From: an uncultured Nitrososphaerota archaeon
Lineage (GTDB): Archaea > Thermoproteota > Nitrososphaeria > Nitrososphaerales > Nitrosopumilaceae
Reading direction: 5' to 3'
NCBI GenBank assembly: GCA_963701075.1
Contig: OY969559.1
Span: 1,088,001 to 1,152,000, forward strand
DNA length: 64,000 nucleotides
Shown: positions 17,926 to 57,222 of the stretch, in pieces
How positions within the stretch are numbered: position 1 is the stretch's first letter
Layout of the letters: the number at the start of each line of letters is the position of its first letter
Notes under the pieces: model-generated
Seen by the model: the letters and a program-made list of their open reading frames with translations, nothing else
Told to the model about the DNA's origin: nothing
Databases searched by the model: none
Translations under genes and position numbers: made by a program

Positions 17926-17943
17926 ATTTCCAATTATGATATT
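17926..17943. promoter_or_regulatory. Box A (ATTTCCA-atta-TGATATT)
   Basis: 41 nt upstream of USP ATG 17984. Confidence 0.7.
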
Positions 17944-17983
17944 TTATAATTTACTTTTTATACGCAAGTTATACATGTAGAAT

Positions 17984-18412
17984 ATGATAAAACACATCAT
18001 GGTACCATATGATACATCAGAATCTTCTATCCGTGCATTTGAGTTTGCAGTTGATCTTGCAAAAAAATACAATTCAAGCATTAGTATTTTTTCATGTGTT
18101 CATCTACAGGTTCCAACCGATCCATACTTTGGGACAGCGTATGCAGAAACAACAAAACTATTGGAAAAAGACGCTATCAACTCAATATCAAAGTTAGAAC
18201 CAAGATTGAAAGAATCCAAGATACCGTTCAAGACTGAGGTATTGGAAGCAATTTCCATTACTGATGCCATAATATCATATGCGGAATCTCACCAAGTAGA
18301 TCTTATTGTGATGGGCTCGCGTGGACTGGGTGGATTTAAGAAACTATTGCTTGGGAGTGTCGCAAGTGGTGTCTCTCAACACTCAAAATGCCCAGTTTTA
18401 ATTATCAAGTAA
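17984..18412 (+). CDS. Universal stress protein
   Basis: IMVPYD...DLIVMGSRGLGGFKKLLLGSVASGV..CPVLII. Confidence 0.93.
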   Translation: MIKHIMVPYDTSESSIRAFEFAVDLAKKYNSSISIFSCVHLQVPTDPYFGTAYAETTKLLEKDAINSISKLEPRLKESKIPFKTEVLEAISITDAIISYAESHQVDLIVMGSRGLGGFKKLLLGSVASGVSQHSKCPVLIIK

Positions 18413-18453
18413 TACTGTTGAATCGTTGAGCGAGATAGATTACGGAAAACAAT

Positions 18454-18889
18454 CTATTTGACTATGAGAACTGGGATCTCCAAGTTGTTAAGAACCCCAT
18501 TAGTAACGCTGCCTAAATACTTGGTATCCGATGAGCTCTGACCTCTAGATCCCATTATTACTATATCAAACCTCTTTGATTTTGCAAAACCAACTATCGT
18601 TTTGACAATGCCAGGCGAGGTAATGATCTTTCCGTCAAATTCTATACCGTTCTTTGTTACACTTGATCTCAGCTTGAAGCATGATTTTTTCTGCACTTTT
18701 TATCAATTCTGTTCTGTATTTTTTTAACAGTGTAGGCGCTTTGGAAAACCCAGAGCTTGATATTACATAAAGTCCGGTTACTGTTCCGCTACTTTGCTTT
18801 GCAAGCGAAATTGCTACGTTTAAACCTCTTATTGAATTTGGGGAACCGTCCAACGGAACAAGAATTTTTTTTAGGGTATTTTGCGACAT
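18454..18889 (-). pseudogene. Universal stress protein, frameshifted (~18650-18695)
   Basis: N-half (ILVPLDGS) and C-half (DIVIMGSRG...LGSV) in different frames. Confidence 0.75.
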
Positions 18890-18932
18890 GTTTGTAAATC
18901 TACATCGTATACTTAAAAACCAGATATATCAA

Positions 18933-18950
18933 GTTATCAAAAATGAAATT
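18933..18950. promoter_or_regulatory. Box A (GTTATCA-aaaa-TGAAATT), shared by divergent USP genes
   Basis: 41 nt from ATG 18991 and 44 nt from ATG 18889; TATA-like element on both sides. Confidence 0.75.
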
Positions 18951-18990
18951 CTAAGGTCTCTTTAAATGGGCTGATTGATAATCTTTCTTT

Positions 18991-19419
18991 ATGTTTGAGC
19001 ACATCATGGTGCCATATGACAAGTCAGAACCTGCCAGTAGAGCACTTGAATATGCAATGGATCTTGCCAAGAAATACAGTTCAAAAATAAGTATTATAAC
19101 ATATGTGTCCCTGAACGTCGGTTATTCTGCAGATGGTGGTAGTTCATACGTGGAGATGGTAAAATTGCAAAAGAAATCAGCAGAATACACTCTCTCAAAA
19201 TTAGAACCAAAGTTACAAAAACTCAAAATTCCTTACTGCATTAAAGCAATTGAAGGAACATCCATCATTGAAACTTTAATTTCCTATGCAGAAATGCATC
19301 ACGTAAATCTTATAGTGATGGGCTCGCGTGGACTGGGTGGATTTAAGAAACTATTGCTTGGGAGTGTCGCAAGTGGAGTCTTACAGCATTCGGAGTGTCC
19401 TGTGTGGATAGTAAAATAG
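18991..19419 (+). CDS. Universal stress protein
   Basis: USP motifs; paralog of 17984. Confidence 0.93.
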   Translation: MFEHIMVPYDKSEPASRALEYAMDLAKKYSSKISIITYVSLNVGYSADGGSSYVEMVKLQKKSAEYTLSKLEPKLQKLKIPYCIKAIEGTSIIETLISYAEMHHVNLIVMGSRGLGGFKKLLLGSVASGVLQHSECPVWIVK

Positions 19420-19449
19420 GAATTTTGCTAGCCTTACATACCCAATAGC

Positions 19450-19468
19450 TGCAGTGCAGCTCACTGCA
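19450..19468. promoter_or_regulatory. Box B (TGCAGTG-cagct-CACTGCA)
   Basis: Perfect 7-5-7 palindrome 10 nt before TTAAAT (19479). Confidence 0.7.
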
Positions 19469-19515
19469 TACATAGTTGTTAAATTCTATTGAATCAATCC
19501 ACTATCGATCAGAAA

Positions 19516-19674
19516 ATGGTATCAAGCCAGAAGATTGGACTCTTGAACTTCTTTGGAGTAAAAAACTCAAGAAAATACATTCTCATTTGCATAAGGTGTG
19601 GTTCTGATAATATTCAGCGGAAACAAAACCTTATTGAATGCAGAGAATGCGGTAAAGTTCTTTCCACCAAATAG
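19516..19674 (+). CDS. Zinc-ribbon microprotein
   Basis: CIRCGSDNIQRKQNLIECRECG; degenerate paralog at 53.8-53.9 kb. Confidence 0.65.
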   Translation: MVSSQKIGLLNFFGVKNSRKYILICIRCGSDNIQRKQNLIECRECGKVLSTK

Positions 19675-19748
19675 TGCCAAATTGTAATAACAAAAGGCCA
19701 GATAGAGCAAAAGGCTTAACCAATAATGAACCAAGTCTTGTAGATGGA

Positions 19749-20642
19749 CTAGGATTTTTGCGCACTGAGCAATTTACGAATTGAGCGTAATTCTTGTCTG
19801 CGTTTTGCACCTGATTTTGGATAAGCCATTTTGAGTTCTTTTAGTGCATCTAAGATGATCTGTGAAATGATCAGTCTGGTGTTCTCTTTGTCATCTGCAG
19901 GAATGACATACCAAGGTGCCTCAGTCGTGCTTGTGGCACTCAGACAATCTTCATATGCTCTCATGTAATGCTTCCAAAATTTTCTCTCCTCTATATCTGC
20001 AAGGCTAAATTTCCAATTCTTTTCGGGCTCATCAATACGCTTTAGAAAACGTTTCCGTTGTTCTTCTTTTGAAATATGGAGGAAAAATTTGATTATGCGT
20101 GTTCCGTTGCGATGTAGATGGTTTTCCAAGTTCACTATAGAATGATATCGTTGATGCCACATTGTATGCTTATCCAACAATTCATTTGGAAGGCATTCAC
20201 TGTGGAGAATCTCTGGATGTACACGAACAATCAGTACCTCTTCATAATAAGAACGATTGAAGATACCTATTCGCCCCCTTTCAGGCAGACATTGAACAGT
20301 ACGCCATAAAAAATCATGCTTAAGTTCCTCATTGCTTGGATGTTTGAAGCTGAACACTTGACATCCTTGAGGATTGATGCCAGACATCACATGTTTGATA
20401 GCACTGTCTTTTCCTGCCGCATCCATTGCCTGAAAAATCAATAGTAACGAATAGCGGTTTGATGCATAGAGAAGATTTTGCAAGGAGCTTAGTTCTTCCA
20501 CATGTTTTCTGAGGACTTGGTTATACTGTTCCTTTGATTTGTACACGGGGTTCACAGTTGTTTTATAGTTACTGAGTTTCACCTTTTTTCCTGCAGGTAC
20601 AAGAAAATCATTGCAATTTATTTTCATCATGTCACCTTTCAT
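19749..20642 (-). CDS. ppk2: Polyphosphate kinase 2 family, class III-like
   Basis: [13 protein letters not shown] Walker [22 protein letters not shown]. Confidence 0.92.
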
Positions 20643-20922: not shown

Positions 20923-21399
20923 CTATATTCCCAATAATGATACAGTTTCACCATCTTTGTCGGAAGCTAGCACCTTACCTGATTCTTCCTTAGGGTCTAG
21001 TGAATAGACTGCTTTTGGTTTGAACATTATTACAGTAGGATGTTTATTCTTGCTTTGTTGTTCAAATATCTTCGATGATGTCTTGCCAGTGGCTGAGCGC
21101 GATATTGTTTCGATGATTTTTTCCCCCTTATTTTCATCAGTTATGAAACTCACCTTGCCTTTCATTTGGAATCCTCGTAATTGTTCTTTGTCAAAAACAG
21201 CCACACTAACCCAAGGTATTACTCGAAAATTTCCTTGGGATTTGTGTTTGAAAAAATCTAACCAATATATGGAATCATCTGTAAAATAAAATGCGGTCCT
21301 CGGTGATATGTTGGCTAATCCGTTTGGGTCGACTGAAGCAACCACTATGAACTTTTGTCTTTTCATCATGTAAAGTACATCTTCTGGAATTGTAACCAT
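20923..21399 (-). CDS. Pyridoxamine 5'-phosphate oxidase-like FMN-binding protein
   Basis: VVASVDPNGLANISPR...GFQMKGKV split-barrel pattern. Confidence 0.8.
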   Translation of the reverse strand: MVTIPEDVLYMMKRQKFIVVASVDPNGLANISPRTAFYFTDDSIYWLDFFKHKSQGNFRVIPWVSVAVFDKEQLRGFQMKGKVSFITDENKGEKIIETISRSATGKTSSKIFEQQSKNKHPTVIMFKPKAVYSLDPKEESGKVLASDKDGETVSLLGI

Positions 21400-21439: not shown

Positions 21440-21457
21440 ATTATCTTGATTGATAAT
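21440..21457. promoter_or_regulatory. Box A (ATTATCT-tgat-TGATAAT), divergent
   Basis: 41 nt from both ATG 21399 and ATG 21498. Confidence 0.8.
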
Positions 21458-21497: not shown

Positions 21498-22253
21498 ATG
21501 AAAATTATTGTCGCAGCAATAGTTTCAATACTTGTTTTAACTGGATTGTGTGATTTGGCATATGCTGAATCATCATATCAAATGGAAGGAAGTGGGGCTG
21601 CAGTGATGGATACTAATAATCCGCAAATGTACCAATCCATATTTAGAATGACACTGTCAAACCAATCAACCATTACAAAAGGAACATTTCTGGTATATGG
21701 AAGTGATGTGTACCTACATGCATACATGTTGCCTCAAAGCTGGTCATTTTTGTATAATGCAGACGGATCTTTTCATGGACAAGGCCCAGTTCAGACCACT
21801 CAAGGCCAATTCTTTGATGTTGCATTAGATGGTAACCGGGTATTTGCAACAAACACCGGTTCACTATGGAAAGTAAGCGCCGATATGAAAAACAACAATA
21901 CCAATATGATACTTGATTATTTAACTACTGGAATAGATCCACTTCCCACCGTAAACGTATCTTCAAATGCAACTGTAATGATTCCAAACGGCAACTCTAA
22001 CGTAACTGGCGTTGGTTTTTACATACCGCTAAATCTAGAGGCGATGCGAGGAACCACAGTAACATGGCAAAACGAGGATAACATAGGCCATGTAATACAG
22101 AGCCAAGACGGCCACGGAAACATCATACCTATCTTTAGCAGTGCCATATTGAAGACAGGAGATACATTTAGCTACAAATTTGACAAGCCAGGTGTGTATT
22201 ATTATTTTTGTACAATACATCCGTGGAGAACCGGCGTAGTAACCATATCCTGA
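21498..22253 (+). CDS. Secreted cupredoxin-domain protein
   Basis: Signal peptide; WQNEDNIGH...YYYFCTIHPWR (axial Met position is Arg). Confidence 0.85.
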   Translation: MKIIVAAIVSILVLTGLCDLAYAESSYQMEGSGAAVMDTNNPQMYQSIFRMTLSNQSTITKGTFLVYGSDVYLHAYMLPQSWSFLYNADGSFHGQGPVQTTQGQFFDVALDGNRVFATNTGSLWKVSADMKNNNTNMILDYLTTGIDPLPTVNVSSNATVMIPNGNSNVTGVGFYIPLNLEAMRGTTVTWQNEDNIGHVIQSQDGHGNIIPIFSSAILKTGDTFSYKFDKPGVYYYFCTIHPWRTGVVTIS

Positions 22254-22288: not shown

Positions 22289-22306
22289 ATTCTCATGTTT
22301 GGTATT
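22289..22306. promoter_or_regulatory. Box A (ATTCTCA-tgtt-TGGTATT)
   Basis: 41 nt upstream of ATG 22347. Confidence 0.7.
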
Positions 22307-22346: not shown

Positions 22347-23111
22347 ATGCTGGTTCAACATGCAGGCAGTTTGGAAGGAAGATCCCTCGCCACTAGTATA
22401 GTTGCATCTAAGGGACGGAAAAAAAATCAAAATGTACTGAGAGTAGAAAACTTATCAAAAATTTACAGCTCAGAATCAGGAAAAGTAGTTGCATTATCAA
22501 ACATCAATTTTACAGTAAAAAAAGGCGAGTTTGTCTCTATTCTGGGACCATCTGGAAGTGGCAAGTCAACTCTGCTATACATGATAGGAGCATTAGACAG
22601 ACCTAGTGCCGGTAAGGTCTACATTAATGGAGTTGACGTATTCTCACTTAATGATTCGGAGATTGCAATGGTCAGAAACAGGCTAATTGGATATGTCTTC
22701 CAGTCGTATAATTTGATAAATAGATCAACAGTGCTAAAGAATGTCAAGATACCAGTAACAATACGTGGAATGGCTCGTACTGAGGCCAATTTCAAGGCGA
22801 TGGAGATTATGAAAGCACTAGGTATAGATGACAAAATTAATGAAAAACCTGCGAATCTAAGCGGTGGTCAACAGCAGAGGGTTGCTATTGCAAGAGCACT
22901 TGTCAATAACCCATCAATAATACTTGCTGATGAGCCAACTGGTAATTTGGATACGAAAACTGGCAGTGAAGTGTTTGAGATACTCAAAAAACTATCCCGC
23001 CAATTTAACAGAACAATAATCATGGTTACTCATAACGCCGAGCTTGCAGAAGAGACAGATCGGTCTATATTTATAAAAGACGGAAGTATTGAAAGAGAAA
23101 CGCGGCATTAA
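22347..23111 (+). CDS. ABC transporter ATP-binding protein (LolD/MacB type)
   Basis: GPSGSGKST, LSGGQQQRVAIARAL, ILADEPTGNLD. Confidence 0.93.
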   Translation: MLVQHAGSLEGRSLATSIVASKGRKKNQNVLRVENLSKIYSSESGKVVALSNINFTVKKGEFVSILGPSGSGKSTLLYMIGALDRPSAGKVYINGVDVFSLNDSEIAMVRNRLIGYVFQSYNLINRSTVLKNVKIPVTIRGMARTEANFKAMEIMKALGIDDKINEKPANLSGGQQQRVAIARALVNNPSIILADEPTGNLDTKTGSEVFEILKKLSRQFNRTIIMVTHNAELAEETDRSIFIKDGSIERETRH

Positions 23112-23239
23112 ACATCATCATTTGTTCCGTATTACGTCCGTCTTTGATTTTAGTACGTAACGTGATATACTTTCAAGAAAGATCTTCTAAAGATATCTGG
23201 AGTTTTATATTATGTCATAAAATTAAATTTCATTGATTG

Positions 23240-23257
23240 AAACCCATCTTTGGAAAT
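23240..23257. promoter_or_regulatory. Degenerate box A (AAACCCA-tctt-TGGAAAT)
   Basis: CA-N4-TG core in canonical position: 11 nt before AATATAT, 42 nt before TTG 23299. Confidence 0.4.
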
Positions 23258-23298
23258 TAAACAGATATAATATATGCAATGACTAGTTATGGACATTA

Positions 23299-24840
23299 TT
23301 GCATCTTAAAGCTGATATTTTGGGAATAGATTCAGGTGGAAAACCAATTGTATTTCTTAACAAGTCTGATGCAGACGATATTGGAATAAGAGCTTCTGGC
23401 AGAATCACTTTAAATTTCAAAAAAAAGTTGCTCACTGCAATAGTTAACACAACAACGTCAGTCAATCGAGGCCATATTGGAATAAACGACGAAGTTAAAC
23501 GCATGCTTGGCCTAAAACAAAATTCTGACGTAGATGTAGAAATTGCGGCCTTTCCCAAATCACTCCAATTTATTCATAATAGATTGACTGGAAGGAGACT
23601 GTTATATCATGAAATTTACGAAATTGTAAAAGATGTAGTACAGGGGAACCTAAATGAAAATGAAATTTCTGCTTTTGTTACTGCATTAAGCATACAGGGA
23701 TTAGATTTGGATGAAGCAACAAGTCTTGCTTTGTCCATGGTTGAAACTGGAAAACAACTTGATCTTGGAAAAAAGATCATCGTGGACAAACACAGTATAG
23801 GTGGCGTGCCAGGGGACAAGACAACATTGCTAGTTGTTCCTATTGTGGCAGCTATGGGCCTTACAATTCCCAAGGTTTCCTCAAGGGCAATAACGTCAGC
23901 TGGCGGTACTGCCGACAGGGCTGAAACACTAATGCCTGTAGATCTAGAGATAAGCGAGATGGAACGCGTCATACGAAAAAGTAACGGCTGCATGGTATGG
24001 GGAGGATCGTTGGATCTTGCACCCGCCGATGATATTTTTGTTAGAAGTGAATATTCCTTGTACATTGATCCTCTGCTACTACCTTCCATCATGAGTAAGA
24101 AAAAGGCTGTTAATGCGACTCATCTTGTCATTGACATCCCAACGGGACGGGGATCAAAAATGCAGACTATCAGCGAGTCTGACTTTTTGGCTAAAGAACT
24201 AATCGAGCTTGGGCGAAGGCTTGGAATTCGTACACATTGTGTTTTGACAAATGGTGAAAAACCAATAGGGTTTACCATGGGGCCATCACTTGAAGTGAGA
24301 GAAGCTCTCTCCGTATTGATGAACAAAGTAGATGTTCCAGATCTTGTCGATAAAGTCTGTCACATCGCAGGAAGCATATTTGAAATGGTCGGAAAGAAAA
24401 ATGGCTACCACCTAGCAAGAGAGATCCTGCATAGTGGAAAAGCGGAGAAAAAAATGAGGGAAATTATAGGCCTGCAGGGAGGAAACTCGAAAGTAAAGAT
24501 TGAAGATTTGGCAATTGGCGAAGAAAAACATATGGTCAGAGCAAAAAAGCCCGGTCAAGTTCTATGGATGGACAATATTGCACTCATAGAAATTGCTCGA
24601 GCGGCAGGAGCTCCAAAGGACAAAGGCGCTGGCATTGTTTTTAACAAGAAGACTGGCGACAAGGTGCGAATTGGTGATGTTTTGTATACTATCTACGCCG
24701 AAAAACCGCGAAAACTCTCAAGAACAGTTGAACTACTATCAGAAACAGAGCCATTTGGAATAGGTGACAATGTAGAGATGCTCATACACAAAATAAAAGA
24801 ATCTTCGTTTGTAAAAAGATCATTTATGATAGACAGGTAG
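23299..24840 (+). CDS. AMP phosphorylase (archaeal thymidine phosphorylase family)
   Basis: N-terminal barrel extension, DKHSIGGVPG, KVSSRAITSAGGTAD, SIMSKKKA, ARAAGAPKDKGAG. Confidence 0.92.
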   Translation: MHLKADILGIDSGGKPIVFLNKSDADDIGIRASGRITLNFKKKLLTAIVNTTTSVNRGHIGINDEVKRMLGLKQNSDVDVEIAAFPKSLQFIHNRLTGRRLLYHEIYEIVKDVVQGNLNENEISAFVTALSIQGLDLDEATSLALSMVETGKQLDLGKKIIVDKHSIGGVPGDKTTLLVVPIVAAMGLTIPKVSSRAITSAGGTADRAETLMPVDLEISEMERVIRKSNGCMVWGGSLDLAPADDIFVRSEYSLYIDPLLLPSIMSKKKAVNATHLVIDIPTGRGSKMQTISESDFLAKELIELGRRLGIRTHCVLTNGEKPIGFTMGPSLEVREALSVLMNKVDVPDLVDKVCHIAGSIFEMVGKKNGYHLAREILHSGKAEKKMREIIGLQGGNSKVKIEDLAIGEEKHMVRAKKPGQVLWMDNIALIEIARAAGAPKDKGAGIVFNKKTGDKVRIGDVLYTIYAEKPRKLSRTVELLSETEPFGIGDNVEMLIHKIKESSFVKRSFMIDR

Positions 24841-24843
24841 TAC

Positions 24844-25677
24844 ATGAAGACACTTCAACAAGTAACGGATGACATAAGAGAATTCAGAATCCAAGGAGCA
24901 AACCAAATTGCACTGTACAGTTTATGCTTCTTAAAAAAAATTGCGCTTTGTTATGGATTTGGACTCAAATTCAAGACTGTATCACGACATTTGGAAAGGG
25001 CCAGACCAACCGCAGTAGTACTTCATAACTGTATTCAGATTATAAACACAAGTCCAAAAATTTCTACAATTGATACTTTGATTAATACGCTACGTGACAT
25101 GGGAGAAAAAGAAGCAGTATACTCGGCCAAGATTATAAAGAATGGTTCTACAATAATTACATACTGTCACTCGGGGGAAGCAATGTCATTTATCAAACAT
25201 GCGTGGATAAAATACAAAAAGAGATTTTCTGTGATTGCGTGCGAGACAGAACCTTTGGAACAAGGTGTAAGAACCGCAAAAGAGCTGGCAAAAGTGGGAA
25301 TCCCTGTAACCCTGATTGATGATAACGCGATCGGGTTCTTCATAAAATGTGCAGATATGGTAATTGTTGGTGCGGATGCATTACGAAAAGAAGGACTGGT
25401 TAACAAGATAGGAACTAGCCTTCTTGCACAGGCAGCAAATGATGCAGCCAAGCCATTCTATGTGATAGCCAGCTCGCTTAAGATTGACAAGAGGAGAAAA
25501 TTTGAGATCGAGGAGAGGCCTGCAAACGAGATATACAGAAAAATAATGCACAAAAGAGGGCTGGGTGGAATAAAGATACGAAATCCGGCCTTTGATACAA
25601 CTCCATGGAAATATGTTACTGCTGTAATAAACGAGAGAGGAGTCTTGACAAAGAATCAGCTGAGGAAAGTGATATGA
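24844..25677 (+). CDS. Ribose-1,5-bisphosphate isomerase (eIF-2B alpha/beta/delta family)
   Basis: RIQGA, RPTA, TYCHS, VGAD, NKIGT, NPAFDTTP; located between AMPpase and RuBisCO. Confidence 0.88.
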   Translation: MKTLQQVTDDIREFRIQGANQIALYSLCFLKKIALCYGFGLKFKTVSRHLERARPTAVVLHNCIQIINTSPKISTIDTLINTLRDMGEKEAVYSAKIIKNGSTIITYCHSGEAMSFIKHAWIKYKKRFSVIACETEPLEQGVRTAKELAKVGIPVTLIDDNAIGFFIKCADMVIVGADALRKEGLVNKIGTSLLAQAANDAAKPFYVIASSLKIDKRRKFEIEERPANEIYRKIMHKRGLGGIKIRNPAFDTTPWKYVTAVINERGVLTKNQLRKVI

Positions 25678-31346: not shown

Positions 31347-31350
31347 AGAA

Positions 31351-47613: not shown

Positions 47614-47654
47614 CAACAATTGCCTTTAATAAAATCAAACATCCATTGTCTGCT

Positions 47655-49621: not shown

Positions 49622-49639
49622 ATTATCAAGCGTGATAAT
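49622..49639. promoter_or_regulatory. Box A, perfect (ATTATCA-agcg-TGATAAT); weaker second site at 49585-49602
   Basis: 11 nt before TTTTTAT, 42 nt before ATG 49681. Confidence 0.85.
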
Positions 49640-49680: not shown

Positions 49681-50001
49681 ATGAAAACATCAAAGCTACA
49701 AGTCAAACCAATAGCAGCAGTGCTTAGCTTACTGGCTTTCGTTGCTGTTGTTGCCATGTCTCCACATGCTTTTGCGCAACAACCGTTTCAAGGTGGACAG
49801 GGACAACAAAACGGCATTGCCCTTGGATCATCATATAATGCACCAGCAGGTAGTACACAAAATCAGATTCCTGCACAAGTAGTGTATAGTGATTCCGACA
49901 ATCCTACTGGTCCGCTTCAAGGTATGGGATGGGGGATCGGAATGGCAATAGTGGGAGTCATGAGCGGCGTTGGAGTCTGGACAGCAGTACGAAGCAGATA
50001 A
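49681..50001 (+). CDS. Small secreted/membrane protein
   Basis: Signal peptide ending HAFA, Gln/Gly-rich linker, C-terminal TM helix. Confidence 0.7.
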   Translation: MKTSKLQVKPIAAVLSLLAFVAVVAMSPHAFAQQPFQGGQGQQNGIALGSSYNAPAGSTQNQIPAQVVYSDSDNPTGPLQGMGWGIGMAIVGVMSGVGVWTAVRSR

Positions 50002-50086: not shown

Positions 50087-50104
50087 ATTCTCAATAATGA
50101 AAAT
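50087..50104. promoter_or_regulatory. Box A (ATTCTCA-ataa-TGAAAAT)
   Basis: 42 nt before ATG 50146. Confidence 0.8.
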
Positions 50105-50145: not shown

Positions 50146-50568
50146 ATGCAGAAAATTAAGAAGATACTTGTTGCATTAGATGGCTCAGTGCAATCCTTCA
50201 AATCTCTTCAAGAAGCAATTTACCTTGCAAGACAATGCGGTGCAACTATCACCGGATTATGTGTTCTGCCACTATATACAATAAGCCTCGGAAAGTTTAC
50301 AACATCTCTTAGAAATCAAAGCATAAAAGAAGCCAAGAAATTCATGGCAAAAGCAAAGGTGTTCGCGGCACAGAATGGAGTTGTATTTACCGAGAGGATT
50401 GTTATAAGCGATCACACCTCCAAGATTTCAGAATATGCAAGTGACAAAAAGTTCGATCTAATAGTAATGGGATCGCGAGGCATGAACCCCGTCAAAGAAT
50501 TGTTTCTAGGTAGCGTTGCAAACTATACTGTCCATAAATCTAAGATCCCAGTTCTAGTTGTAAAATGA
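50146..50568 (+). CDS. Universal stress protein
   Basis: ILVALDGS...DLIVMGSRG...LGSVAN; paralog of 28480. Confidence 0.93.
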   Translation: MQKIKKILVALDGSVQSFKSLQEAIYLARQCGATITGLCVLPLYTISLGKFTTSLRNQSIKEAKKFMAKAKVFAAQNGVVFTERIVISDHTSKISEYASDKKFDLIVMGSRGMNPVKELFLGSVANYTVHKSKIPVLVVK

Positions 50569-50594: not shown

Positions 50595-50612
50595 ATTACC
50601 ACTATTGGTAAT
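50595..50612. promoter_or_regulatory. Box A variant, perfect palindrome (ATTACCA-ctat-TGGTAAT)
   Basis: 11 nt before TTTTTAA, 42 nt before ATG 50654. Confidence 0.8.
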
Positions 50613-50653: not shown

Positions 50654-51091
50654 ATGGATGAGTACTTTGCAAGAGATATAATGAAAGAACAGGTAGTCAC
50701 GGTTGATTTTGCGGCCACTGTAATGGATGCTGCTAAGAAGATGGATGAAAAAAACATTGGATGCGTAATTGTAATGGAGAAGGAAATGCCGATAGGCATA
50801 CTAACCGAGAGAGATTTTGTAAAAAAGATAGCAGTTAATGAAAAACCCATGTCAACTCCTGTAAGAAATGTAATGTCTTCGCCTTTGATCTCAATAGATC
50901 CTGATGCTACAGTCTGGGAGTTGGCTGAGCTCATGAAACTTAAACGAATTCATAAGGTGCCCGTGGTGCAAGAAAACAAACTGCTTGGAATTGTAACTAC
51001 TGCTGATATTACTAGTCTATGTAGCATAGGCTCTGATTCAGAGATGAGAAAAGTCTGCCAACAAATTCTTTTACGATTGCATCAATCCTAG
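50654..51091 (+). CDS. CBS-pair protein
   Basis: GILTERD...NVMSSP...GIVTTAD. Confidence 0.92.
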   Translation: MDEYFARDIMKEQVVTVDFAATVMDAAKKMDEKNIGCVIVMEKEMPIGILTERDFVKKIAVNEKPMSTPVRNVMSSPLISIDPDATVWELAELMKLKRIHKVPVVQENKLLGIVTTADITSLCSIGSDSEMRKVCQQILLRLHQS

Positions 51092-51126: not shown

Positions 51127-51999
51127 TTATTTTTCATTATGACTCCAATTATATTCCGTAAGATTTTCCGAATCAAGACTCTTTATGACATCCCAAGGCG
51201 TCAGGACTCCTTCTTCATGTAGAAGATATGGAGATTGCATTTCGTATAGTATCTTGCTTGCTTCTTCAAGTAAAATCTTACCAGAAACCTCTTTTGCCTT
51301 GTCTAATCTGAATTCACTACATTTCATTTCAAGAAAATTATCTACATCATGTAAGCAATTCAGATCTTGTGATATTTTTTGAATAATTATTCTGTCGCTT
51401 ATGAACTGCGAAGTTCCTTCTAAGATCAGCTTGCGGGTTCTGTTTTCGAACATTGCTGAGATGACTTCTTTTACTGTTTGATCTTTTCTAAAAGTAAAGA
51501 TTTTCTTCTTTGAGATATCTTTTATCTCCATTTTTGTCTTGCATAGCATTCCTATCTCAAGCAACTTTCTTGCAGATATTGCAGAGTAACTGCGATACTG
51601 ATTTGGCATTATGGCAAATGCTCTGTTTGTCTTCATCCATTGCTTTAGAAGTTCGCCTAATGTTGCATCCTTATCCACTATGACCAGATTTTTGTGCATG
51701 ATCTCTTTGATTCTGGTCTTTTCAAAAAAGCCAGCATTTGGACTACGCAATACTCCTTCTAGGATGCCAGCTCCTCCCACCAGTCCTACTGGCTTGTTGT
51801 CTTGTACAACTATCAACGAGTCTGTAAAAGTCTCCAAGTTGTGAGAAAGGAGGTTAGTTGCTTCTGCTACTGGATCGTTCGTTCTTACACTGACCACTGG
51901 CGAAGACAGGAGAGAATCTGGCAATAGATCGAGCATAACATGCTGTGAAATTGGTGTCTTTTCCGGGTTTGAATGAGAGTGATTAGTAGGTCTTTTCAC
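51127..51999 (-). CDS. Divergent CBS-domain protein
   Basis: Degenerate CBS repeats (KPVGLVGG, KEIMHKNLV). Confidence 0.65.
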   Translation of the reverse strand: MKRPTNHSHSNPEKTPISQHVMLDLLPDSLLSSPVVSVRTNDPVAEATNLLSHNLETFTDSLIVVQDNKPVGLVGGAGILEGVLRSPNAGFFEKTRIKEIMHKNLVIVDKDATLGELLKQWMKTNRAFAIMPNQYRSYSAISARKLLEIGMLCKTKMEIKDISKKKIFTFRKDQTVKEVISAMFENRTRKLILEGTSQFISDRIIIQKISQDLNCLHDVDNFLEMKCSEFRLDKAKEVSGKILLEEASKILYEMQSPYLLHEEGVLTPWDVIKSLDSENLTEYNWSHNEK

Positions 52000-52040: not shown

Positions 52041-52058
52041 ATTATCAGGAGTGATTTT
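52041..52058. promoter_or_regulatory. Box A (ATTATCA-ggag-TGATTTT)
   Basis: 11 nt from minus-strand TAAATATA, 42 nt from GTG 51999. Confidence 0.8.
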
Positions 52059-52069: not shown

Positions 52070-53101
52070 CTATGGTATTAGAATGGCTCTTCCCTGGATC
52101 TTTCCAGCTTCCAAGTTTTCAATGGCTTTGCCTACATCATCTAGTTTGAATGGATTGACAACAGTCTTGAGCTTGTTTGCACGAGCCAGGCTAATTACTT
52201 CAGTGAGTTCATTGTAATTTCCCCAAAGAGAGCCGATTACGCTGTACTCGTTTATGACTGACTCTACTATAGGTATGTTAAATGAGTTGCCCATTAATCC
52301 AACTAGAACTAGCGCTCCCCTCTTTTTCAGGCATGCTATGCCAAGATCCAGTGTATCTTTTGATGCCACTATATCTAAAACAACATCCACGCCGTGATTT
52401 CCAGTTATCTTGTTAAGAGATGATATGACGTCCTCGTTTTGGGAATTGATGACATAGTCTGAACCCATCTCTCTTGCAAGTTTAGTCTTGGCCTCACTTC
52501 GTTCCACGGTAATTACATTTGTTGGAGATAATAGTTTTAGATATTGTATAGCATAACTGCCAAGACCCCCAGCTCCGAACAATAGTGTAAAGCTATTGGG
52601 ATTTAGCATGTGACGAACCCTCTTTACTGCCCTGTATGGTGTGAGTCCTGCATCAGTCAAGGGGGCAACATATTTTGGATCCAAGCCAGGTGCCTTTACA
52701 AGAAAACGATATGATGGAATGTACATGTATTCTGCGTATCCTCCGTCGGATTGTGAGAGTCCTGGCCATGTAGGCAAGTTACAAAGTTGCTCGTCGCCTC
52801 CTTTGCAAAATTGACAGACTCCGCATCCCCAACCGCCAAATACTGCTACTACATCCCCTTTTGCAAGTCCACGCACAGACTCGCCAACTTCCTCGACATA
52901 GCCAGCCGTCTCATGGCCTATTGTCACAGGAAGCTTTACTGGAATTGTTTTCTGCCACTCTCCATGAATGAAATGAATATCGCTATGACATATTCCAGCC
53001 GCCCCTACCCGTATCACAACACTCTCTCCTTTTGGTTTTGGAAGATCTACTTCGTCTAGTTGTAATGGTTCTCCATAATTGTGTAGTCTTGCGGCCTTCA
53101 A
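52070..53101 (-). CDS. Zinc-dependent alcohol dehydrogenase
   Basis: CHSD, GHE, CGVCQFC..C, DAGLTPYRA, GAGGLG. Confidence 0.92.
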   Translation of the reverse strand: MKAARLHNYGEPLQLDEVDLPKPKGESVVIRVGAAGICHSDIHFIHGEWQKTIPVKLPVTIGHETAGYVEEVGESVRGLAKGDVVAVFGGWGCGVCQFCKGGDEQLCNLPTWPGLSQSDGGYAEYMYIPSYRFLVKAPGLDPKYVAPLTDAGLTPYRAVKRVRHMLNPNSFTLLFGAGGLGSYAIQYLKLLSPTNVITVERSEAKTKLAREMGSDYVINSQNEDVISSLNKITGNHGVDVVLDIVASKDTLDLGIACLKKRGALVLVGLMGNSFNIPIVESVINEYSVIGSLWGNYNELTEVISLARANKLKTVVNPFKLDDVGKAIENLEAGKIQGRAILIP

Positions 53102-53150: not shown

Positions 53151-53168
53151 ATTATCATTTGTGAAAAT
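53151..53168. promoter_or_regulatory. Box A (ATTATCA-tttg-TGAAAAT)
   Basis: 11 nt from minus-strand TTTAATA upstream of the ADH gene. Confidence 0.8.
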
Positions 53169-53206: not shown

Positions 53207-53677
53207 CTAATGCACTATCATTACTGCGCAAGGTGCAAGCTCTGAAACTTTTCTGCTCACGCTGCCCAAGACCTTTAGTTTATTCAAACCGCGTAACCCT
53301 TGGCTTCCTATTACTATGAGATCAATTTTTTTTCCTCTGGCATACTTTAGGATCATCTCAACTGGTTTTCCTGAAATTATATCATAGATTGCGTCGACAC
53401 CCTGTGATTTGCATATTGCTACTTCTGCAAGAACTTCTCTTCTGGCTTGGGTCTTTGCAGCTGCCATGAATTCAGATATTGATTCTTCAAGTCTCTTGTC
53501 CTTTTTTAACAAGCCAAGCAGCATTCCTGGAGGAAAATCTTCGGGATCAACTACTATGATAACGTGGATCTTAGAACCTAGCCTTTTAGCTATTTTTATT
53601 GCATGAGCAAGGGCTTTTCTTGCAAATTTTGAACCATCCGTTGGAACCAGTATTTTTTCAAATTTTGCCTCTGACAT
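53207..53677 (-). CDS. Universal stress protein
   Basis: ILVPTDGS...DLIVIGSQG...LGSVSRK; start reassigned to 53677. Confidence 0.92.
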   Translation of the reverse strand: MSEAKFEKILVPTDGSKFARKALAHAIKIAKRLGSKIHVIIVVDPEDFPPGMLLGLLKKDKRLEESISEFMAAAKTQARREVLAEVAICKSQGVDAIYDIISGKPVEMILKYARGKKIDLIVIGSQGLRGLNKLKVLGSVSRKVSELAPCAVMIVH

Positions 53678-53718: not shown

Positions 53719-53736
53719 AATTTCAGTATTGATATT
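53719..53736. promoter_or_regulatory. Box A (AATTTCA-gtat-TGATATT)
   Basis: 11 nt from minus-strand TTTAAG, 42 nt from ATG 53677. Confidence 0.75.
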
Positions 53737-53794: not shown

Positions 53795-53948
53795 AGTTCT
53801 GATTTGTCTGTAAGAATGCCGCATTGGCGGCATTCGATTTGTCTCCTCTGAATATTGTCAGAATCACATCTTATACAAATGGGATATACTTTCTTGAGTT
53901 TTGTATTCTATGGAAATTAAAAAGTTCAGTTCTATGACTTGATACTAT
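53795..53948 (-). pseudogene. Degenerate paralog of the zinc-ribbon microgene 19516-19674
   Basis: Nucleotide similarity including upstream region; ATG>ATA, 1-nt deletion before CIRCDSDNIQRRQIECRQCG. Confidence 0.65.
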
Positions 53949-53996: not shown

Positions 53997-54015
53997 TGCA
54001 TTGAATGGCACTGCA
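53997..54015. promoter_or_regulatory. Box B (TGCATTG-aatgg-CACTGCA)
   Basis: 10 nt before minus-strand TTAAAT (53986). Confidence 0.7.
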
Positions 54016-54106: not shown

Positions 54107-54124
54107 ATTCTCAAAGATGATAAT
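54107..54124. promoter_or_regulatory. Box A (ATTCTCA-aaga-TGATAAT)
   Basis: 11 nt before TTTAAA, 42 nt before ATG 54166. Confidence 0.82.
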
Positions 54125-54165: not shown

Positions 54166-54498
54166 ATGTCACAAAATGTAGAGACGCAGTACGATGGTTT
54201 CTTGGATCAGATTACCAGCAAACTCGGAAAGATTGATCTCAAGTTGGCAACTGATGTGATGTATTATGAGAGAAAATTTACTGATGTAGAACCCAAAGTT
54301 GAACTAGATGTACACTATAGAAACGGAACCAACATGGACAAGAAAAAATATGAACTAGAAGCAAGTTACATGGTTGCCCGAGAGGGAGAAAACGGCATTC
54401 GAGCAGTTGGTTTGGCATCGTTGGCTGACATACTTAAACTAGCAAAAGATCCTGACATTGAAAAGATTGATGGATTTGCTACCTGTGCGTCTTACTAG
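54166..54498 (+). CDS. Hypothetical protein
   Basis: 110 aa ORF with a canonical box A promoter. Confidence 0.7.
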   Translation: MSQNVETQYDGFLDQITSKLGKIDLKLATDVMYYERKFTDVEPKVELDVHYRNGTNMDKKKYELEASYMVAREGENGIRAVGLASLADILKLAKDPDIEKIDGFATCASY

Positions 54499-54518: not shown

Positions 54519-55097
54519 TTAGTAATCATGTTCGCTAAAATCCGATCCTAGGGCACTACTAACTATGGCCGTATTTGGGGTGGTACGTGATTTAACTGCA
54601 AGGTTTGGCATGAATTGATGGAAGATTTCTTTTAAAATCATCTCTGTAAAAAGAGACCATTTGATGCCAAGATTGTGTTGTACTATAAAATGATGAACCT
54701 CACCTTCTATTCTGTGATCTGATGTCATACCGGATGCCCTCATGTAATCCTCAAAAGCCTCGATTGCACGCTTCAGATCATAACTTCCCTTCATGAACAT
54801 TACCCAGTCCTTCACCAGAGGAACCATGACATTGATTATCTTGTTCATGGACTCTCCTTCCATCTCTTCGCCTAATGTCTTCAAGACATCCCTTGGAACG
54901 GGTATCATTCCAATATTTTCTGCAAACCTATCCCAGTTGACATATTTTTCTAAAATCTGCTTTACAAGTACATTTTGAGAGATTTTTCTCTGCATTGCCT
55001 CTGTTTCTAGCTCTTCTACTACGTGTACCGGTAGCCTATAGCTTATGCTTCTGGTATCCTCATGTTTTGTAGGATGGGGCTTTCTTGTAACGCTCAT
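54519..55097 (-). CDS. Ribbon-helix-helix protein with C-terminal domain
   Basis: TRSISYRLPVHVVEELETEAMQRKISQNVLVKQILEKYV RHH pattern. Confidence 0.65.
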   Translation of the reverse strand: MSVTRKPHPTKHEDTRSISYRLPVHVVEELETEAMQRKISQNVLVKQILEKYVNWDRFAENIGMIPVPRDVLKTLGEEMEGESMNKIINVMVPLVKDWVMFMKGSYDLKRAIEAFEDYMRASGMTSDHRIEGEVHHFIVQHNLGIKWSLFTEMILKEIFHQFMPNLAVKSRTTPNTAIVSSALGSDFSEHDY

Positions 55098-55208
55098 CTA
55101 GATTCTATTGAACTATTTCTAACTTATATAACTAGTGAATATCTCTCAATTAGGCACACATCTTGATGTGTTTGCTACATCTGTACCGTTCCATCCTGTA
55201 GAATCTTT

Positions 55209-55718
55209 CTATTTTTTTATGTGATCTTTGTCTATGTGATTGCATACAGATTTTGTATCTTTGAATTGCTTTGAACAGTATGGACAATACGTTTTATCAG
55301 CTATCTCTAATTCTGGGAGTAGAAGATCATGTCTCTCAAGGTTCCCGCAGACCATTTTTTGTGTAATAAGACCAATTGGGCGTTTGTCCATCACTACCAA
55401 CCTACGTATATCGTGTTTTCTCATAATCTCTAATGCTTCTCTGACTAGAGATGTTTTTTGTATCGTTATCAAAGGACTCTTTGTGATCTGCTTCAATGTA
55501 GTTTTTGTTGGATCTAATCCTTTTGCTACTACATCATACAGGATATCTTTCTCAGTTACAATGCCTGTTATCTTGCTATTCTCAAATACCAGGATGCTAT
55601 CTATCTTAGACTCTGCCATGGCTTGGGCTGCATCTTGTATGGTAAGGTTACTCTCAACAGTAGTCATTTTGGGATTGGTGAATTTGGAAACTGGCTCGTT
55701 GAGAAGATCTAATGCCAT
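55209..55718 (-). CDS. CBS pair + C2H2 zinc finger
   Basis: CBS pair followed by CPYCSKQF......NHIDKDH. Confidence 0.88.
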   Translation of the reverse strand: MALDLLNEPVSKFTNPKMTTVESNLTIQDAAQAMAESKIDSILVFENSKITGIVTEKDILYDVVAKGLDPTKTTLKQITKSPLITIQKTSLVREALEIMRKHDIRRLVVMDKRPIGLITQKMVCGNLERHDLLLPELEIADKTYCPYCSKQFKDTKSVCNHIDKDHIKK

Positions 55719-55835
55719 GTGATATGATGCTCCTGTATCTTGATTTAATTTTGGAGGTATTTATATGATTGATGACGAGAAACCTCTTTCTGTATGGGCT
55801 ACACGTTCAAGAATTGGACTTGTGTATGATTTGTA

Positions 55836-55854
55836 TGCATTGCCGTGCAATGCG
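55836..55854. promoter_or_regulatory. Box B (TGCATTG-ccgtg-CAATGCG)
   Basis: 10 nt before TTATAT (55865) of wHTH paralog 2. Confidence 0.7.
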
Positions 55855-55892
55855 GTCCTACTGGTTATATCAAATATTATTGAATACGACAT

Positions 55893-56231
55893 ATGCAAGT
55901 ATTGCTACAAGGAAAACAGGTACAGGAAGAGACAACAAAAGATGTCTTGCTTGAGATCTTGGCAGACAAGTACTCTAGAACCATACTAGAATCCACAATA
56001 GATATGCCAAAATCAGCCATTGATATCACCCATGAGTGTGGCATACCAATCAGCACCGCTTATCGCAGAGTGCAAATGTTACACAGACACAAACTGCTTG
56101 GCATCTCTGGTTCAATCAGCCAAGATGGTAAAAAGTACTTTTTGTACAAATCCAAAGTCAAGTCAATCATGGCGTGTTTCAACAATGGTTCACTTGAAGT
56201 TGAGATTGTTCCTAATTCTGCATTAACTTAG
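55893..56231 (+). CDS. Winged-helix (ArsR-like) transcription regulator, paralog 2
   Basis: Highly similar to 27786-28127. Confidence 0.85.
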   Translation: MQVLLQGKQVQEETTKDVLLEILADKYSRTILESTIDMPKSAIDITHECGIPISTAYRRVQMLHRHKLLGISGSISQDGKKYFLYKSKVKSIMACFNNGSLEVEIVPNSALT

Positions 56232-56241
56232 AATTAGGAAC
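56208..56241 (+). other. Inverted repeat across the wHTH stop codon
   Basis: GTTCCTAATTCT-10 nt-AGAATTAGGAAC; shorter equivalent at 27783-27811. Confidence 0.5.
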
Positions 56242-56261
56242 TGCAAAAATTTTTCGAGATG

Positions 56262-56279
56262 AGAATCATGTATGAGAAT
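56262..56279. promoter_or_regulatory. Box A (AGAATCA-tgta-TGAGAAT)
   Basis: 11 nt before TTTAAA, 41 nt before ATG 56320. Confidence 0.7.
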
Positions 56280-56319
56280 AGAGCCGGCATTTTAAATGTG
56301 ATTAAAGTGGAGGTATGGT

Positions 56320-57180
56320 ATGATATCTAAGATACAGCAATTCACATCATCTGTTATAACATTACAACCCGAAGATACTATTAATGATGCATTATTTTTA
56401 ATGCAAAAAAACGATATAAAACGAATTGTTATTGTACAGAACAATTTTCCTATTGGAATAGTTACAGAGCGTGATATAGGAAGATTCTTGGAGTACGACA
56501 AGACAACAAAAGCACTTGACAAAATACCTGTTCAGAATATAATGAGTAGAAGCCTAGTTACAATATCTGCAGAAGATCATGATATTGCAATACAGTCAGC
56601 TATTAGAATGGATACATTTCAAATAAGCTCTGTTGTTGTAGTGGATAACGACGGAAATCTAGCTGGAATTATAACAAAGTCTGATTTGACAAGGATTTTT
56701 TCCAGTCTGTATAGCCGAGTCTACAAAGTTTCTGATTACATGTCAAAGAAGATAATCACCTGCCGCAAATCAGATTCGCTAACATTTGCTTTGGATATGT
56801 TAAACAAAAACAAGATCTCAAGATTGGTAGTTACTGATAACGAAGGAAAACCTATAGGTGTGATTACATATGATACGTTTCTAAGAAACAGCGGTTTTTT
56901 CAAGGCAAATAAAAGTACACGTAACTATCTTTTACCCAGTATCGATGCAAAGGAGATGAGGGTTGGAAATCTAATAAAAGATGAACTGCTTACAGTCACG
57001 ACCGAAGACGATTTGGCTATTGCTGCTAAATTAATGACAGATTTCAAGGTAAGTGGAATACCAGTCGTTGACCGTGAGGGATCTCTTGAGGGCGTCATAA
57101 GTTCTACCGATGTTGTAAATGCATACTCTGAGGTAGAGACACACTTTCGTTTGATAAAGAAAGATCCGCATTTTGATTAG
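56320..57180 (+). CDS. 4xCBS protein
   Basis: GIVTERD, GIITKSD, GVITYD, GVISSTD. Confidence 0.9.
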   Translation: MISKIQQFTSSVITLQPEDTINDALFLMQKNDIKRIVIVQNNFPIGIVTERDIGRFLEYDKTTKALDKIPVQNIMSRSLVTISAEDHDIAIQSAIRMDTFQISSVVVVDNDGNLAGIITKSDLTRIFSSLYSRVYKVSDYMSKKIITCRKSDSLTFALDMLNKNKISRLVVTDNEGKPIGVITYDTFLRNSGFFKANKSTRNYLLPSIDAKEMRVGNLIKDELLTVTTEDDLAIAAKLMTDFKVSGIPVVDREGSLEGVISSTDVVNAYSEVETHFRLIKKDPHFD

Positions 57181-57204
57181 TAAAGTTATCGCAAAGAAGA
57201 TGTA

Positions 57205-57222
57205 ATTCTTAGAACTGATAAT
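57205..57222. promoter_or_regulatory. Box A (ATTCTTA-gaac-TGATAAT)
   Basis: 11 nt before TTTTTAA, 42 nt before ATG 57264. Confidence 0.78.

Follow-up and report, generated by a model that had tools for sequence, protein, structure and literature searches.

A conserved palindromic promoter element and a candidate stress regulon in ammonia-oxidising archaea of the family Nitrosopumilaceae

An 18-bp palindrome, ATTATCA-N4-TGATAAT (the box), recurs at a fixed distance upstream of start codons throughout a 40-kb gene cluster of an uncultured archaeon of the Nitrosopumilaceae. The DNA analyzed is a stretch of 64,000 nucleotides (contig OY969559.1, bases 1,088,001-1,152,000; the window), in which the cluster occupies positions 17926-57222 and is referred to as the island. 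The box is almost certainly a genuine element that marks a genuine regulon. In the interpretation preferred here, which is considered reasonably likely, it is the operator of a dimeric regulator, probably a small winged-helix protein encoded in the island, and this regulator most likely activates a regulon for heat, hypoxia, or energy stress. Judged from its sequence features, the system would be a transcription-factor regulon with an upstream palindromic operator that works like an archaeal upstream activating site. The source genome is a single contig of 1.916 Mb with a GC content of 38.6%. It encodes archaeal AmoA, which identifies the organism as an ammonia oxidiser, and the closest homologues of one of its proteins are labelled Candidatus Nitrosotalea or Nitrosopumilaceae in the databases. 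Below, G000 denotes the source genome, other G numbers denote compared genomes, and L numbers denote individual sequences or stretches used in the comparisons.

Perfect copies of the box were located at 33676, 36721, and 49622, together with a symmetric variant, ATTACCA-N4-TGGTAAT, at 50595, all as listed in an initial annotation of this DNA; no perfect copy arose in 100 dinucleotide shuffles. When up to 3 mismatches were allowed, the window contained 46 matches, compared to 11.2 ± 3.2 in the shuffles (largest value, 21). A position weight matrix (PWM) was trained on the 20 island sites with at most 2 mismatches. At a threshold of 10 bits it returned 35 matches in the window, every one within 17926-57222 and none in the flanks, with 27 reaching 13 bits; these counts are partly circular because the PWM was trained on island sites. 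Across the genome, the core TATCA-Nk-TGATA occurs 24 times with k = 4 (11 intergenic, 6 in the island) and 3-11 times (0-4 intergenic) with any other k from 0 to 12. At a threshold of 16 bits, the genome holds 39 sites (local shuffles, 2.2), of which 34 are intergenic; 21 lie in the island and 18 outside it. The earlier statement that the flanking core regions lack the box therefore stands for this window but does not extend to the genome. The idea of an island-wide regulon needs a similar adjustment: sites are dense in the island, but strong sites with the same geometry are found elsewhere, and no box of at least 10 bits is present in 23112-23298, upstream of the AMP phosphorylase/RuBisCO operon of the island.

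The geometry of the box promoters is tightly constrained. Among 55 pairs of a box and an open reading frame (ORF), the gap to the start codon was most often 41 nt (16 pairs), followed by 40 (11), 39 (6), and 42 nt (5). The initial annotation gave 39-45 nt, mostly 41-42; the peak is the same, as that count ran one base further. The start of an ORF of at least 60 aa was found at 38-44 nt from 21 of 27 island boxes and from 19 of 56 boxes outside the island, whereas about 10% of random positions have one. The genome-wide scan and positional test that had been proposed with the motif thus found the N4 spacing to be specific and the canonical distance to be used above random. Several ORF starts (33734, 41409, 43289, 53677, and 40808) were moved inward to an ATG that restores a gap of 39-42 nt. 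TATA-like, T/A-rich columns appear at box positions +30 to +36, or 11-12 nt past the box, where a gap of about 11 nt had been claimed. They place the TATA-like element approximately 26 nt from the ATG, a leaderless geometry that agrees with the near-leaderless transcripts first suggested. The same T-then-A, TATA-like signal occurs at -30 to -24 from the ATG in 649 non-box genes (those that begin with ATG and have 70 nt or more of spacer upstream), so a leaderless geometry is the norm in this genome. Relative to the presumed transcript start, the box would extend from about -59 to -42. Tandem boxes precede several promoters (36721/36764, 47564/47596, and 28945/29009), and the single box at 21440-21457 serves divergent promoters at 40 nt from each ATG by the present counting, equidistant as originally noted.

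A palindromic operator implies that a dimeric factor is to be expected. The original proposal of a dimeric activator just upstream of the transcription factor B recognition element (BRE) and TATA fits in both the palindrome and its position, with the activating sign drawn from position only. Activation is modestly favored over repression, because the box lies upstream of the BRE, boxes occur in tandem upstream, one box is shared by divergent promoters, and the BRE region is atypical: 26 box promoters have the TATA-like signal without the A-rich stretch at -38 to -32 (the BRE position) seen in the 649 other genes. Upstream activating sites in archaea include those of Ptr2 (Methanocaldococcus), TFB-RF1 (Pyrococcus), and TrmBL1 at gluconeogenic promoters. 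The box resembles these sites in its location directly upstream of BRE/TATA at a fixed phase, in its expected dimeric factor, and perhaps in a weak or atypical BRE region. It differs in that the known systems use other protein families (Lrp/AsnC and TrmB) and other motifs, and in that activation is here only predicted. The TrmBL1 site, TATCAC-N5-GTGATA, has the TATCA/TGATA core in common with the box, but the core spacing is N7 rather than N4.

The same operator and regulon could also be under negative control, with a Phr/ArsR-like dimer that blocks TFB from the BRE, or bends the DNA, and leaves upon stress to allow derepression. This is regarded as possible, although rather unlikely. Its case rests first on the Phr/ArsR-like fold of the candidate regulator, whose best structural match is Phr, followed by SmtB/ArsR-type repressors, and on the short gap of approximately 4-5 bp between the end of the box and the usual BRE position. 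In addition, the TATA-like element of the box promoters is not weak but at least equal to the genome average, which is not what an activator-dependent promoter needs. Phr itself is a negative regulator with a palindromic site and controls HSP20, the AAA ATPase VAT1, and the PAC2-type PbaA in Pyrococcus furiosus, according to the available text of PMC10746257. These points weigh against an activating role, as does the small basis of the weak-BRE argument (26 promoters only). The preferred interpretation as a whole is also weakened by the 6 of 27 island boxes that are off the canonical distance from any ORF of at least 60 aa. Repression fits less well with a box that is wholly upstream of TATA, with the missing A-rich BRE-like stretch, and with the tandem upstream boxes and the divergent 21440 box, which are typical of upstream activating sites. 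Characterised archaeal repressors mostly overlap TATA/BRE or the start site, and the sites of Phr lie around the start.

The box is conserved well beyond the source genome. Boxes with at most 1 mismatch were present in 17 of the 18 other genomes of the genus, at 0-24 per genome (reversed-pattern control, 0-2). The comparison in related Nitrososphaerota suggested in the initial annotation was run on a family sample of 91 genomes, at least 90% complete and from 24 genera; the box was found in 76 of these genomes and in 22 genera, with a summed count of 529 compared to approximately 35 for the control (the control was summed by hand). Both the genus and family tallies include the unpublished genomes G011, G012, G081, and G108. 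Among 12 genomes from other families of the order, counts of 0-5 were obtained against 0-3 for the control, a signal too weak to call. Box-rich stretches taken from 6 genomes of 3 genera contain 79 boxes that reach 14 bits, and 41 of these sit 38-44 nt from an ORF start (random positions, 271 of 3600); the distance histogram peaks at 39-41. The targets in other genera are orthologues of the Usp, CBS, Hsp20, cupredoxin, PNPOx, CBS-ZnF, and 110-aa (hyp110) genes of the window, and in G077 the box also precedes a CDC48 AAA ATPase gene and a P-II gene. On these comparisons, the regulon is old and family-wide.

The boxes might instead be pieces of promoter that were copied along with duplicated Usp and CBS genes, with no dedicated factor, as two expanded families of paralogues account for many of the targets (the island has 10 Usp and 11 CBS-domain genes). 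However, the box precedes at least 15 unrelated gene families and its N4 spacing is specific genome-wide. It is retained at orthologous promoters between genera even though the proteins are merely 40-60% identical. Half-sites and distances are conserved although the sequences of the N4 spacer and the 11-nt linker change, so mere promoter copying does not account for the pattern. This explanation is accordingly given hardly any weight.

Outside the island, the box stands at the same distance before more Usp genes. Genes for a ferritin-like protein, an FMN reductase, a DUF302 protein, and a paralogous winged-helix protein also have the box upstream. Two Cys-rich peptides of 37 and 42 aa (G000 1545394-1545507 (-) and 1548134-1548262 (-)), which look metallothionein-like, are each preceded at 40 nt by a box of very high score (24.0 and 21.6 bits). 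A Met/His-rich protein of 141 aa (G000 1548374-1548799 (+)) is encoded on the opposite side of one of the Cys-rich-peptide boxes. In this genome, the predicted regulon would comprise about 25 promoters in the 40-kb island and roughly 15-20 elsewhere. Its predicted content includes Usp proteins, CBS proteins of the adenine-nucleotide-sensing type, Hsp20, PAC2, cupredoxins, PNPOx with PPK2, and ABC and MFS transporters, together with ferritin-like, FMN-reductase, and DUF302 proteins and the small Cys-rich peptides.

Three genes near one another in the island form a putative regulatory hub. The candidate regulator is a winged-helix protein of 112 aa (55893-56231 (+); ArsR-type in database names), and a second copy, 82% identical, is encoded at 27786-28127 (-). 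CBS-ZnF (55209-55718 (-)) combines a CBS pair with a C2H2 zinc finger; the box is kept at its orthologues and is degenerate here. RHH192 (54519-55097 (-)) is a protein of 192 aa with a weak RHH (CopG/BrnA-like) N-terminus and has 12 paralogues in the genome. All three genes are found inside box-rich islands of G077, G032, and G110, and only the winged-helix and RHH192 genes of the trio were found in G014, a complete genome with 12 boxes. The winged-helix protein in turn has 10 paralogues in the genome, and paralogues of the two proteins also stand side by side as a second conserved pair, at G000 849291-850163 and 801837-803779. Most genomes of the genus have this second RHH192-like and winged-helix pair, as does G021, and the arrangement suggests that the two families work together.

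The distribution of the winged-helix gene follows that of the box. An orthologue (E ≤ 1e-28) was found in 47 of the 91 family genomes, and these have a median of 8 boxes, compared to 2.5 in the other 44; the Mann-Whitney p of 8e-12 overstates the case, since related genomes are not independent. All 15 box-free genomes are without the gene, and in 9 of the 10 genera with both states, genomes carrying the gene have the higher mean box count. Some apparent exceptions have simple explanations. In G009 the winged-helix gene is cut by a contig end, and G080 and G003 have genuine sites but fragmented assemblies with many sites at contig ends. G042, which is complete and without the gene, has 6 one-mismatch boxes, and the 3 examined were all off the canonical distance, as were the 3 examined in G043.

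Other observations count against this assignment. In the unpublished G011, which has a completeness of 99%, a search for the hub genes found none (the best family match has 40% identity), yet 3-4 of its 11 scanned sites of at least 13 bits lie 39-41 nt from ORF starts, and one of these well-placed boxes fronts an orthologue of a box-bearing G000 gene. Co-occurrence also cannot separate the winged-helix protein from RHH192, because the hub genes travel together. A further concern is the promoter of the winged-helix gene, discussed below.

Structural modeling is consistent with a dimeric DNA-binding protein. The AF2 model of the winged-helix protein has a pLDDT of 83.4, and its best Foldseek match in the PDB is Pyrococcus Phr (2p4w; E 2e-4, TMq 0.74, TMt 0.44, 101 columns, 15% identity), with SmtB/ArsR proteins next. 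A homodimer model scored 0.58 compared to 0.00 for the best of 3 controls, with contacts agreeing at 97% or more between runs and a partner pLDDT of at least 83. In calibration, 20 of 30 proteins solved as same-chain pairs attained this mark, as did 1 of 23 solved as single chains, counts that hold only roughly here because a custom alignment was used; the pass may also come partly from model memory, as ArsR-type dimers have already been solved. The recognition helix, P-I-S-T-x-Y-R-R, is invariant across genera. Family profiles gave only weak HTH_IclR matches for the island copies (E 0.0012 and 0.048), whereas the paralogue L002 matched HTH_20 at 27.3 bits (cut-off 27), and several close homologues carry precomputed PF12840 assignments and ArsR-family names in the databases.

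The Phr regulon of P. furiosus (Thermococcales) offers a close parallel: its winged-helix regulator has an ArsR-like fold, as does the candidate here, and its operator is likewise palindromic. Its content also overlaps with that of the box regulon, in Hsp20 (41449 box), PAC2 with Hsp20 (30547 box), and the Cdc48/VAT AAA ATPase that is boxed in G077. The differences are substantial. At 112 aa and 15% identity, the candidate matches just the N-terminal half of Phr (198 aa) and is missing the long C-terminal dimerisation part; the operator sequence is different; and the regulon here consists mainly of Usp and CBS proteins. The Phr operator lies around the transcription start site, whereas the box is wholly upstream of TATA. 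With a shorter candidate regulator and an operator on the other side of TATA, this is not the Phr system as defined.

Neither winged-helix promoter carries the ATTATCA box. Both have instead a second palindrome, GCAYTGC-N3-GCAATGC, 11 nt before TATA: as GCATTGC-N3-GCAATGC at 55837-55853 for the gene at 55893, and with 1 mismatch at 28167-28183 for the gene at 28127 (-). The palindrome and its linker are kept in 14 of 14 winged-helix orthologues, including those from other genera, so the protein might bind this site and not the box. A third copy (53998-54014) faces the minus strand in a 452-nt spacer with no obvious ORF behind it. Downstream of it, at 53814-53835 (-), is a perfect hairpin with a 9-bp stem, GAATGCCGC-CAAT-GCGGCATTC, which could belong to a small RNA or to a long leader of the Usp gene 53207-53677. 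By contrast with the winged-helix gene, CBS-ZnF and the 4xCBS gene beside it keep an ATTATCA-type box across genera. RHH192 closely follows CBS-ZnF in other genera, where the two are probably in one transcript.

These features raise the alternative that another protein binds the box (RHH192, CBS-ZnF, the HTH_3-CBS protein 57731-58285, or a further factor) while the winged-helix protein binds its own GCAYTGC palindrome. This is a minority possibility that has to be taken seriously. It is in keeping with the other palindrome in all 14 orthologues, since autoregulation via an own site is common, with the presence of RHH192 alongside the winged-helix gene wherever both are assessable, and with the conservation of the second, paralogous RHH192-like and winged-helix pair. 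G011, in which no hub gene was found but a few well-placed boxes remain, points the same way. The HTH_3-CBS gene (57731-58285 (-); XRE-type HTH_3 and a CBS pair) starts right after the PPDK gene and abuts the island, and its product is a plausible nucleotide-sensing regulator. On the other side, a winged-helix protein restricted to the GCAYTGC palindrome would have its regulon shrink to the 2-3 such sites per genome. In the paralogue G000 490365, which shares the T-A-Y-R-R helix, the site 40 nt upstream of the start is a box and not the other palindrome.

Several other proteins considered as the regulator were set aside. CBS-ZnF was not found in the complete G014, with its 12 boxes, nor in G016 or G005. 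HTH_3-CBS, a core gene, does not track the box, as it is present in 87 of the 91 family genomes, including every box-free genus. A 77-aa box-bearing protein shared with G011 occurs in only 3 of the 91 genomes, and the paralogue G000 490365, despite its box 40 nt upstream, is unique to this genome. The assignment of the winged-helix protein as the box binder is tentative, at slightly under even chances.

The heptamer itself suggests another system, since TGATAAT/ATTATCA is the heptamer of the 7-1-7 Fur box (TGATAAT-n-ATTATCA). A Fur-like metal-responsive operator, in a regulon that answers to iron or another metal, would be in line with the candidate's weak sequence match to the Fur DNA-binding domain (E 0.9), with Fur chains among its fold matches (rank 5, E 2.6e-3, TMq 0.41), and with targets such as the ferritin-like protein, the Cys-rich 37- and 42-aa peptides, and the Met-rich protein. 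However, while the heptamer is identical, the arrangement is everted with N4 as the sole enriched spacing, which distinguishes it from the 7-1-7 Fur box. The candidate lacks the Fur C-terminal domain, and at 112 aa it is too short to accommodate a dimerisation or metal-binding domain of the Fur type. The box targets include no metal-uptake genes, and in Nitrosopumilus maritimus, Usp genes were not regulated under Cu stress according to the available text of PMC12974425. A Fur-type operator is thus very unlikely.

In the proposed mechanism, a dimeric factor would occupy the 18-bp box one helical turn (11-12 nt) upstream of the TATA of leaderless or near-leaderless promoters, and the winged-helix homodimer would help TFB and the TATA-binding protein (TBP) onto promoters without an A-rich BRE. 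Heat or proteotoxic stress, or a shortage of oxygen or energy, would be the likely triggers. The motif, its spacing, position, and conservation, the hub co-occurrence, and the protein fold were computed here; the binder, the sign, and the signal are inferred. Published omics responses fit a heat, hypoxia, or energy-stress programme. In the parts available of three reports, N. maritimus at its top growth temperature had HSP20, a Cdc48-like ATPase, 4 UspA, and 2 CBS proteins up together (PMC12974425), sponge Nitrosopumilus symbionts in hypoxia had Usp, Hsp20, CBS, P-II, and regulators up (bioRxiv 10.1101/2023.02.27.530229), and ammonia-limited N. brevis had Hsp20 up about 10-fold (bioRxiv 10.1101/175141). 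The fit is tempered by the comparison with N. maritimus and the sponge symbionts being by protein family only, not by box.

A two-operator circuit is suggested by the hub CBS-ZnF and RHH genes being predicted to be box-controlled while the winged-helix gene would be under the second palindrome. The winged-helix gene would be driven via GCAYTGC-N3-GCAATGC with the same 11-nt geometry. The simplest such circuit has two steps. In the first, the winged-helix dimer would act at the boxes; in the second, box-controlled RHH192 or CBS-ZnF would feed back on the winged-helix promoter. In its most ambitious form, which is speculative and held to be rather unlikely, this circuit of both palindromes would be the master stress/dormancy switch of the family, run by a minimal Phr-like dimer, an RHH partner, and a CBS-ZnF nucleotide sensor, with adenine-nucleotide/redox status or heat leading to activation of 2-3% of the genome (Usp, CBS, Hsp20, Cdc48, PAC2, P-II, and cupredoxin).

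The box sites of the island, which serve approximately 25 promoters, are given here from left to right with their PWM scores. In the first part of the island, the box at 17926-17943 (16.9 bits) lies 40 nt before a Usp gene (17984-18412 (+)), and that at 18933-18950 (15.8 bits) lies 40 nt before another (18991-19419 (+)) and 43 nt before a truncated Usp gene (18635-18889 (-)). The divergent box at 21440-21457 (20.9 bits) precedes a cupredoxin gene (21498-22253 (+)) and a PNPOx gene (20923-21399 (-)), with PPK2 (19749-20642) downstream of the latter on the same strand. An ABC ATPase gene (22347-23111 (+)) follows the box at 22289-22306 (17.9 bits) by 40 nt. Of the pair at 28945-28962 (21.0 bits) and 29009-29026 (13.6 bits), the former is 39 nt before a Usp gene (28480-28905 (-)) and the latter is at a non-canonical 85 nt before a CBS protein gene (29112-30278 (+)). 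The product of this CBS gene (388 aa) is conserved together with the box in other genera. By-eye likeness of its C-terminal 110 aa to a ribosome-hibernation factor was not supported by a PDB sequence search, where the best match (E 1.9) was a lipoprotein.

The box at 30547-30564 (22.6 bits) lies 41 nt before a PAC2 gene (30606-31346 (+); proteasome-assembly chaperone family), with Hsp20 (31294-31746) behind it. The perfect box at 33676-33693 (23.1 bits) is 40 nt before a CBS gene (33734-34183 (+), start corrected to 33734), and a 4xCBS gene (34256-35122 (-)) lies 41 nt from the box at 35164-35181 (18.6 bits). In the tandem pair that precedes the Usp gene 36823-37278 (+), the upstream box (36721-36738; perfect, 23.9 bits) is 84 nt and the downstream box (36764-36781; 20.9 bits) 41 nt from the start at 36823. 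Two further minus-strand genes have corrected starts: an ABC ATPase gene (39855-40808, start corrected to 40808), 41 nt from the box at 40850-40867 (18.4 bits), and an Hsp20 gene (40897-41409, start corrected to 41409), 39 nt from the box at 41449-41466 (19.7 bits), a distance that is kept at the G009 orthologue. The box at 43229-43246 (19.7 bits) stands 42 nt before a cupredoxin gene (43289-43915 (+)) and 39 nt before the gene for a 48-aa charged peptide (43043-43189 (-)). This peptide belongs to a highly charged type of 42-48 aa, with a Lys-rich N-terminus followed by EQEEMKEE..HQ and no family match, whose genes have a box 38-41 nt upstream in 4 genomes of 3 genera (L069, L073, L074, and L080).

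Another 4xCBS gene (43993-44778 (+)) begins 35-38 nt from the box at 43940-43957 (16.8 bits). In the divergent region 46783-47067, the box at 46879-46896 (16.0 bits) is not at the canonical distance from any start. A box of lower score in this region (46826; 11.7 bits) lies 43 nt before a CBS gene (46006-46782 (-)), and the box at 47006-47023 (15.6 bits) lies 44 nt before a DUF6114 gene (47068-47463 (+)). A second tandem pair precedes a Usp gene: 47564-47581 (15.7 bits) is the upstream member, and 47596-47613 (16.0 bits) is 41 nt from the ATG at 47655 (ORF 47646-48101 (+)). Five boxes in the following stretch are all 41 nt from their genes, namely the perfect box at 49622-49639 (21.1 bits; 106-aa protein without a family match, 49681-50001 (+)), 50087-50104 (19.9 bits; Usp, 50146-50568 (+)), the variant at 50595-50612 (18.9 bits; CBS, 50654-51091 (+)), 52041-52058 (16.0 bits; CBS, 51127-51999 (-)), and 53719-53736 (14.3 bits; Usp, 53207-53677 (-), start corrected to 53677). 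Between the last two, the box at 53151-53168 (19.1 bits) is 49 nt before a Zn alcohol dehydrogenase gene (52070-53101 (-)). The box at 54107-54124 (20.0 bits) is 41 nt before the gene for the 110-aa protein (54166-54498 (+)), whose orthologues in G009, G014, and G080 are also boxed. Beside the winged-helix gene, a weak box at 56262-56279 (10.4 bits), kept at orthologues in other genera, lies 40 nt before a 4xCBS gene (56320-57180 (+)). The last box, at 57205-57222 (16.9 bits), is 41 nt before the ATG at 57264 of a frameshift-split CBS gene (50 aa, then 57310-57693).

In addition to the 10 Usp and 11 CBS-domain genes, Pfam matches in the island include 2 Hsp20, 1 PAC2 proteasome-assembly chaperone, 2 cupredoxins, PNPOx with PPK2, a PhaC-like hydrolase, a Zn alcohol dehydrogenase, and ABC, MFS, and amino-acid transporters. 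The operon at 23299-26963 encodes AMP phosphorylase, ribose-1,5-bisphosphate isomerase (IF-2B family), and form III RuBisCO in series, a pathway recorded earlier in one species of the same genus according to the available text of PMC5767755. The mid-island gene 31847-32689 (+), for which no box was seen, joins an ATP-cone, an Mrr-type nuclease core, and an AF1548-like C-terminal domain, which is an unusual nucleotide-sensing architecture. Three genes appear to be broken: the CBS gene 57264-57693 (frameshift after 50 aa), an ABC-2 permease gene (39091-39874; ORFs of 168 and 91 aa), and a box-bearing Usp gene outside the island (G000 453047-453238), shortened to 63 aa. These may be decaying members of the regulon or sequencing errors.

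The island is flanked by genes of core metabolism (methylmalonyl-CoA mutase and PPDK). The GC content is 36-41% all along the window with no compositional shift at the island, no tRNA was found in the 64-kb window, and no integrase is among the Pfam matches of the island proteins. With no deviant composition, tRNA, or integrase, a horizontally transferred island was rejected as an explanation; the island is a regulon cluster and not an evident transferred element.

In gene content, the regulon is strikingly similar to the DosR dormancy regulon of Mycobacterium tuberculosis, which responds to low oxygen or energy through one palindromic box and includes many Usp proteins, Hsp20 (Acr), CBS-pair and flavin/PNPOx-type proteins, and storage-polymer synthesis. 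DosR is a bacterial response regulator of the LuxR type with an unrelated motif, and the likeness is one of functional analogy only. No published description of the motif, or of any regulon or operator in ammonia-oxidising archaea, was found in the literature searched (few subscription journals, no supplements), in accord with the initial annotation, which knew of no described regulon with this motif in these organisms. The regulatory roles of Usp proteins in ammonia-oxidising archaea "remain largely unknown" in the available text of a 2026 proteomics paper (PMC12974425).

Ammonia-oxidising archaea are among the most abundant microbes of oceans and soils and are not genetically manipulable. 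A family-wide operator would give a predicted regulon for each genome of the family, as well as marker genes from which physiological state could be read in metatranscriptomes, and the present analysis names three candidate proteins and two DNA sites for a binding study. The system probably also illustrates how leaderless promoters are controlled from upstream in archaea other than the classical models. If true, the master-switch circuit would explain the heat and hypoxia responses that have been seen piecemeal in published omics, in the family to which most marine and many soil ammonia oxidisers belong.

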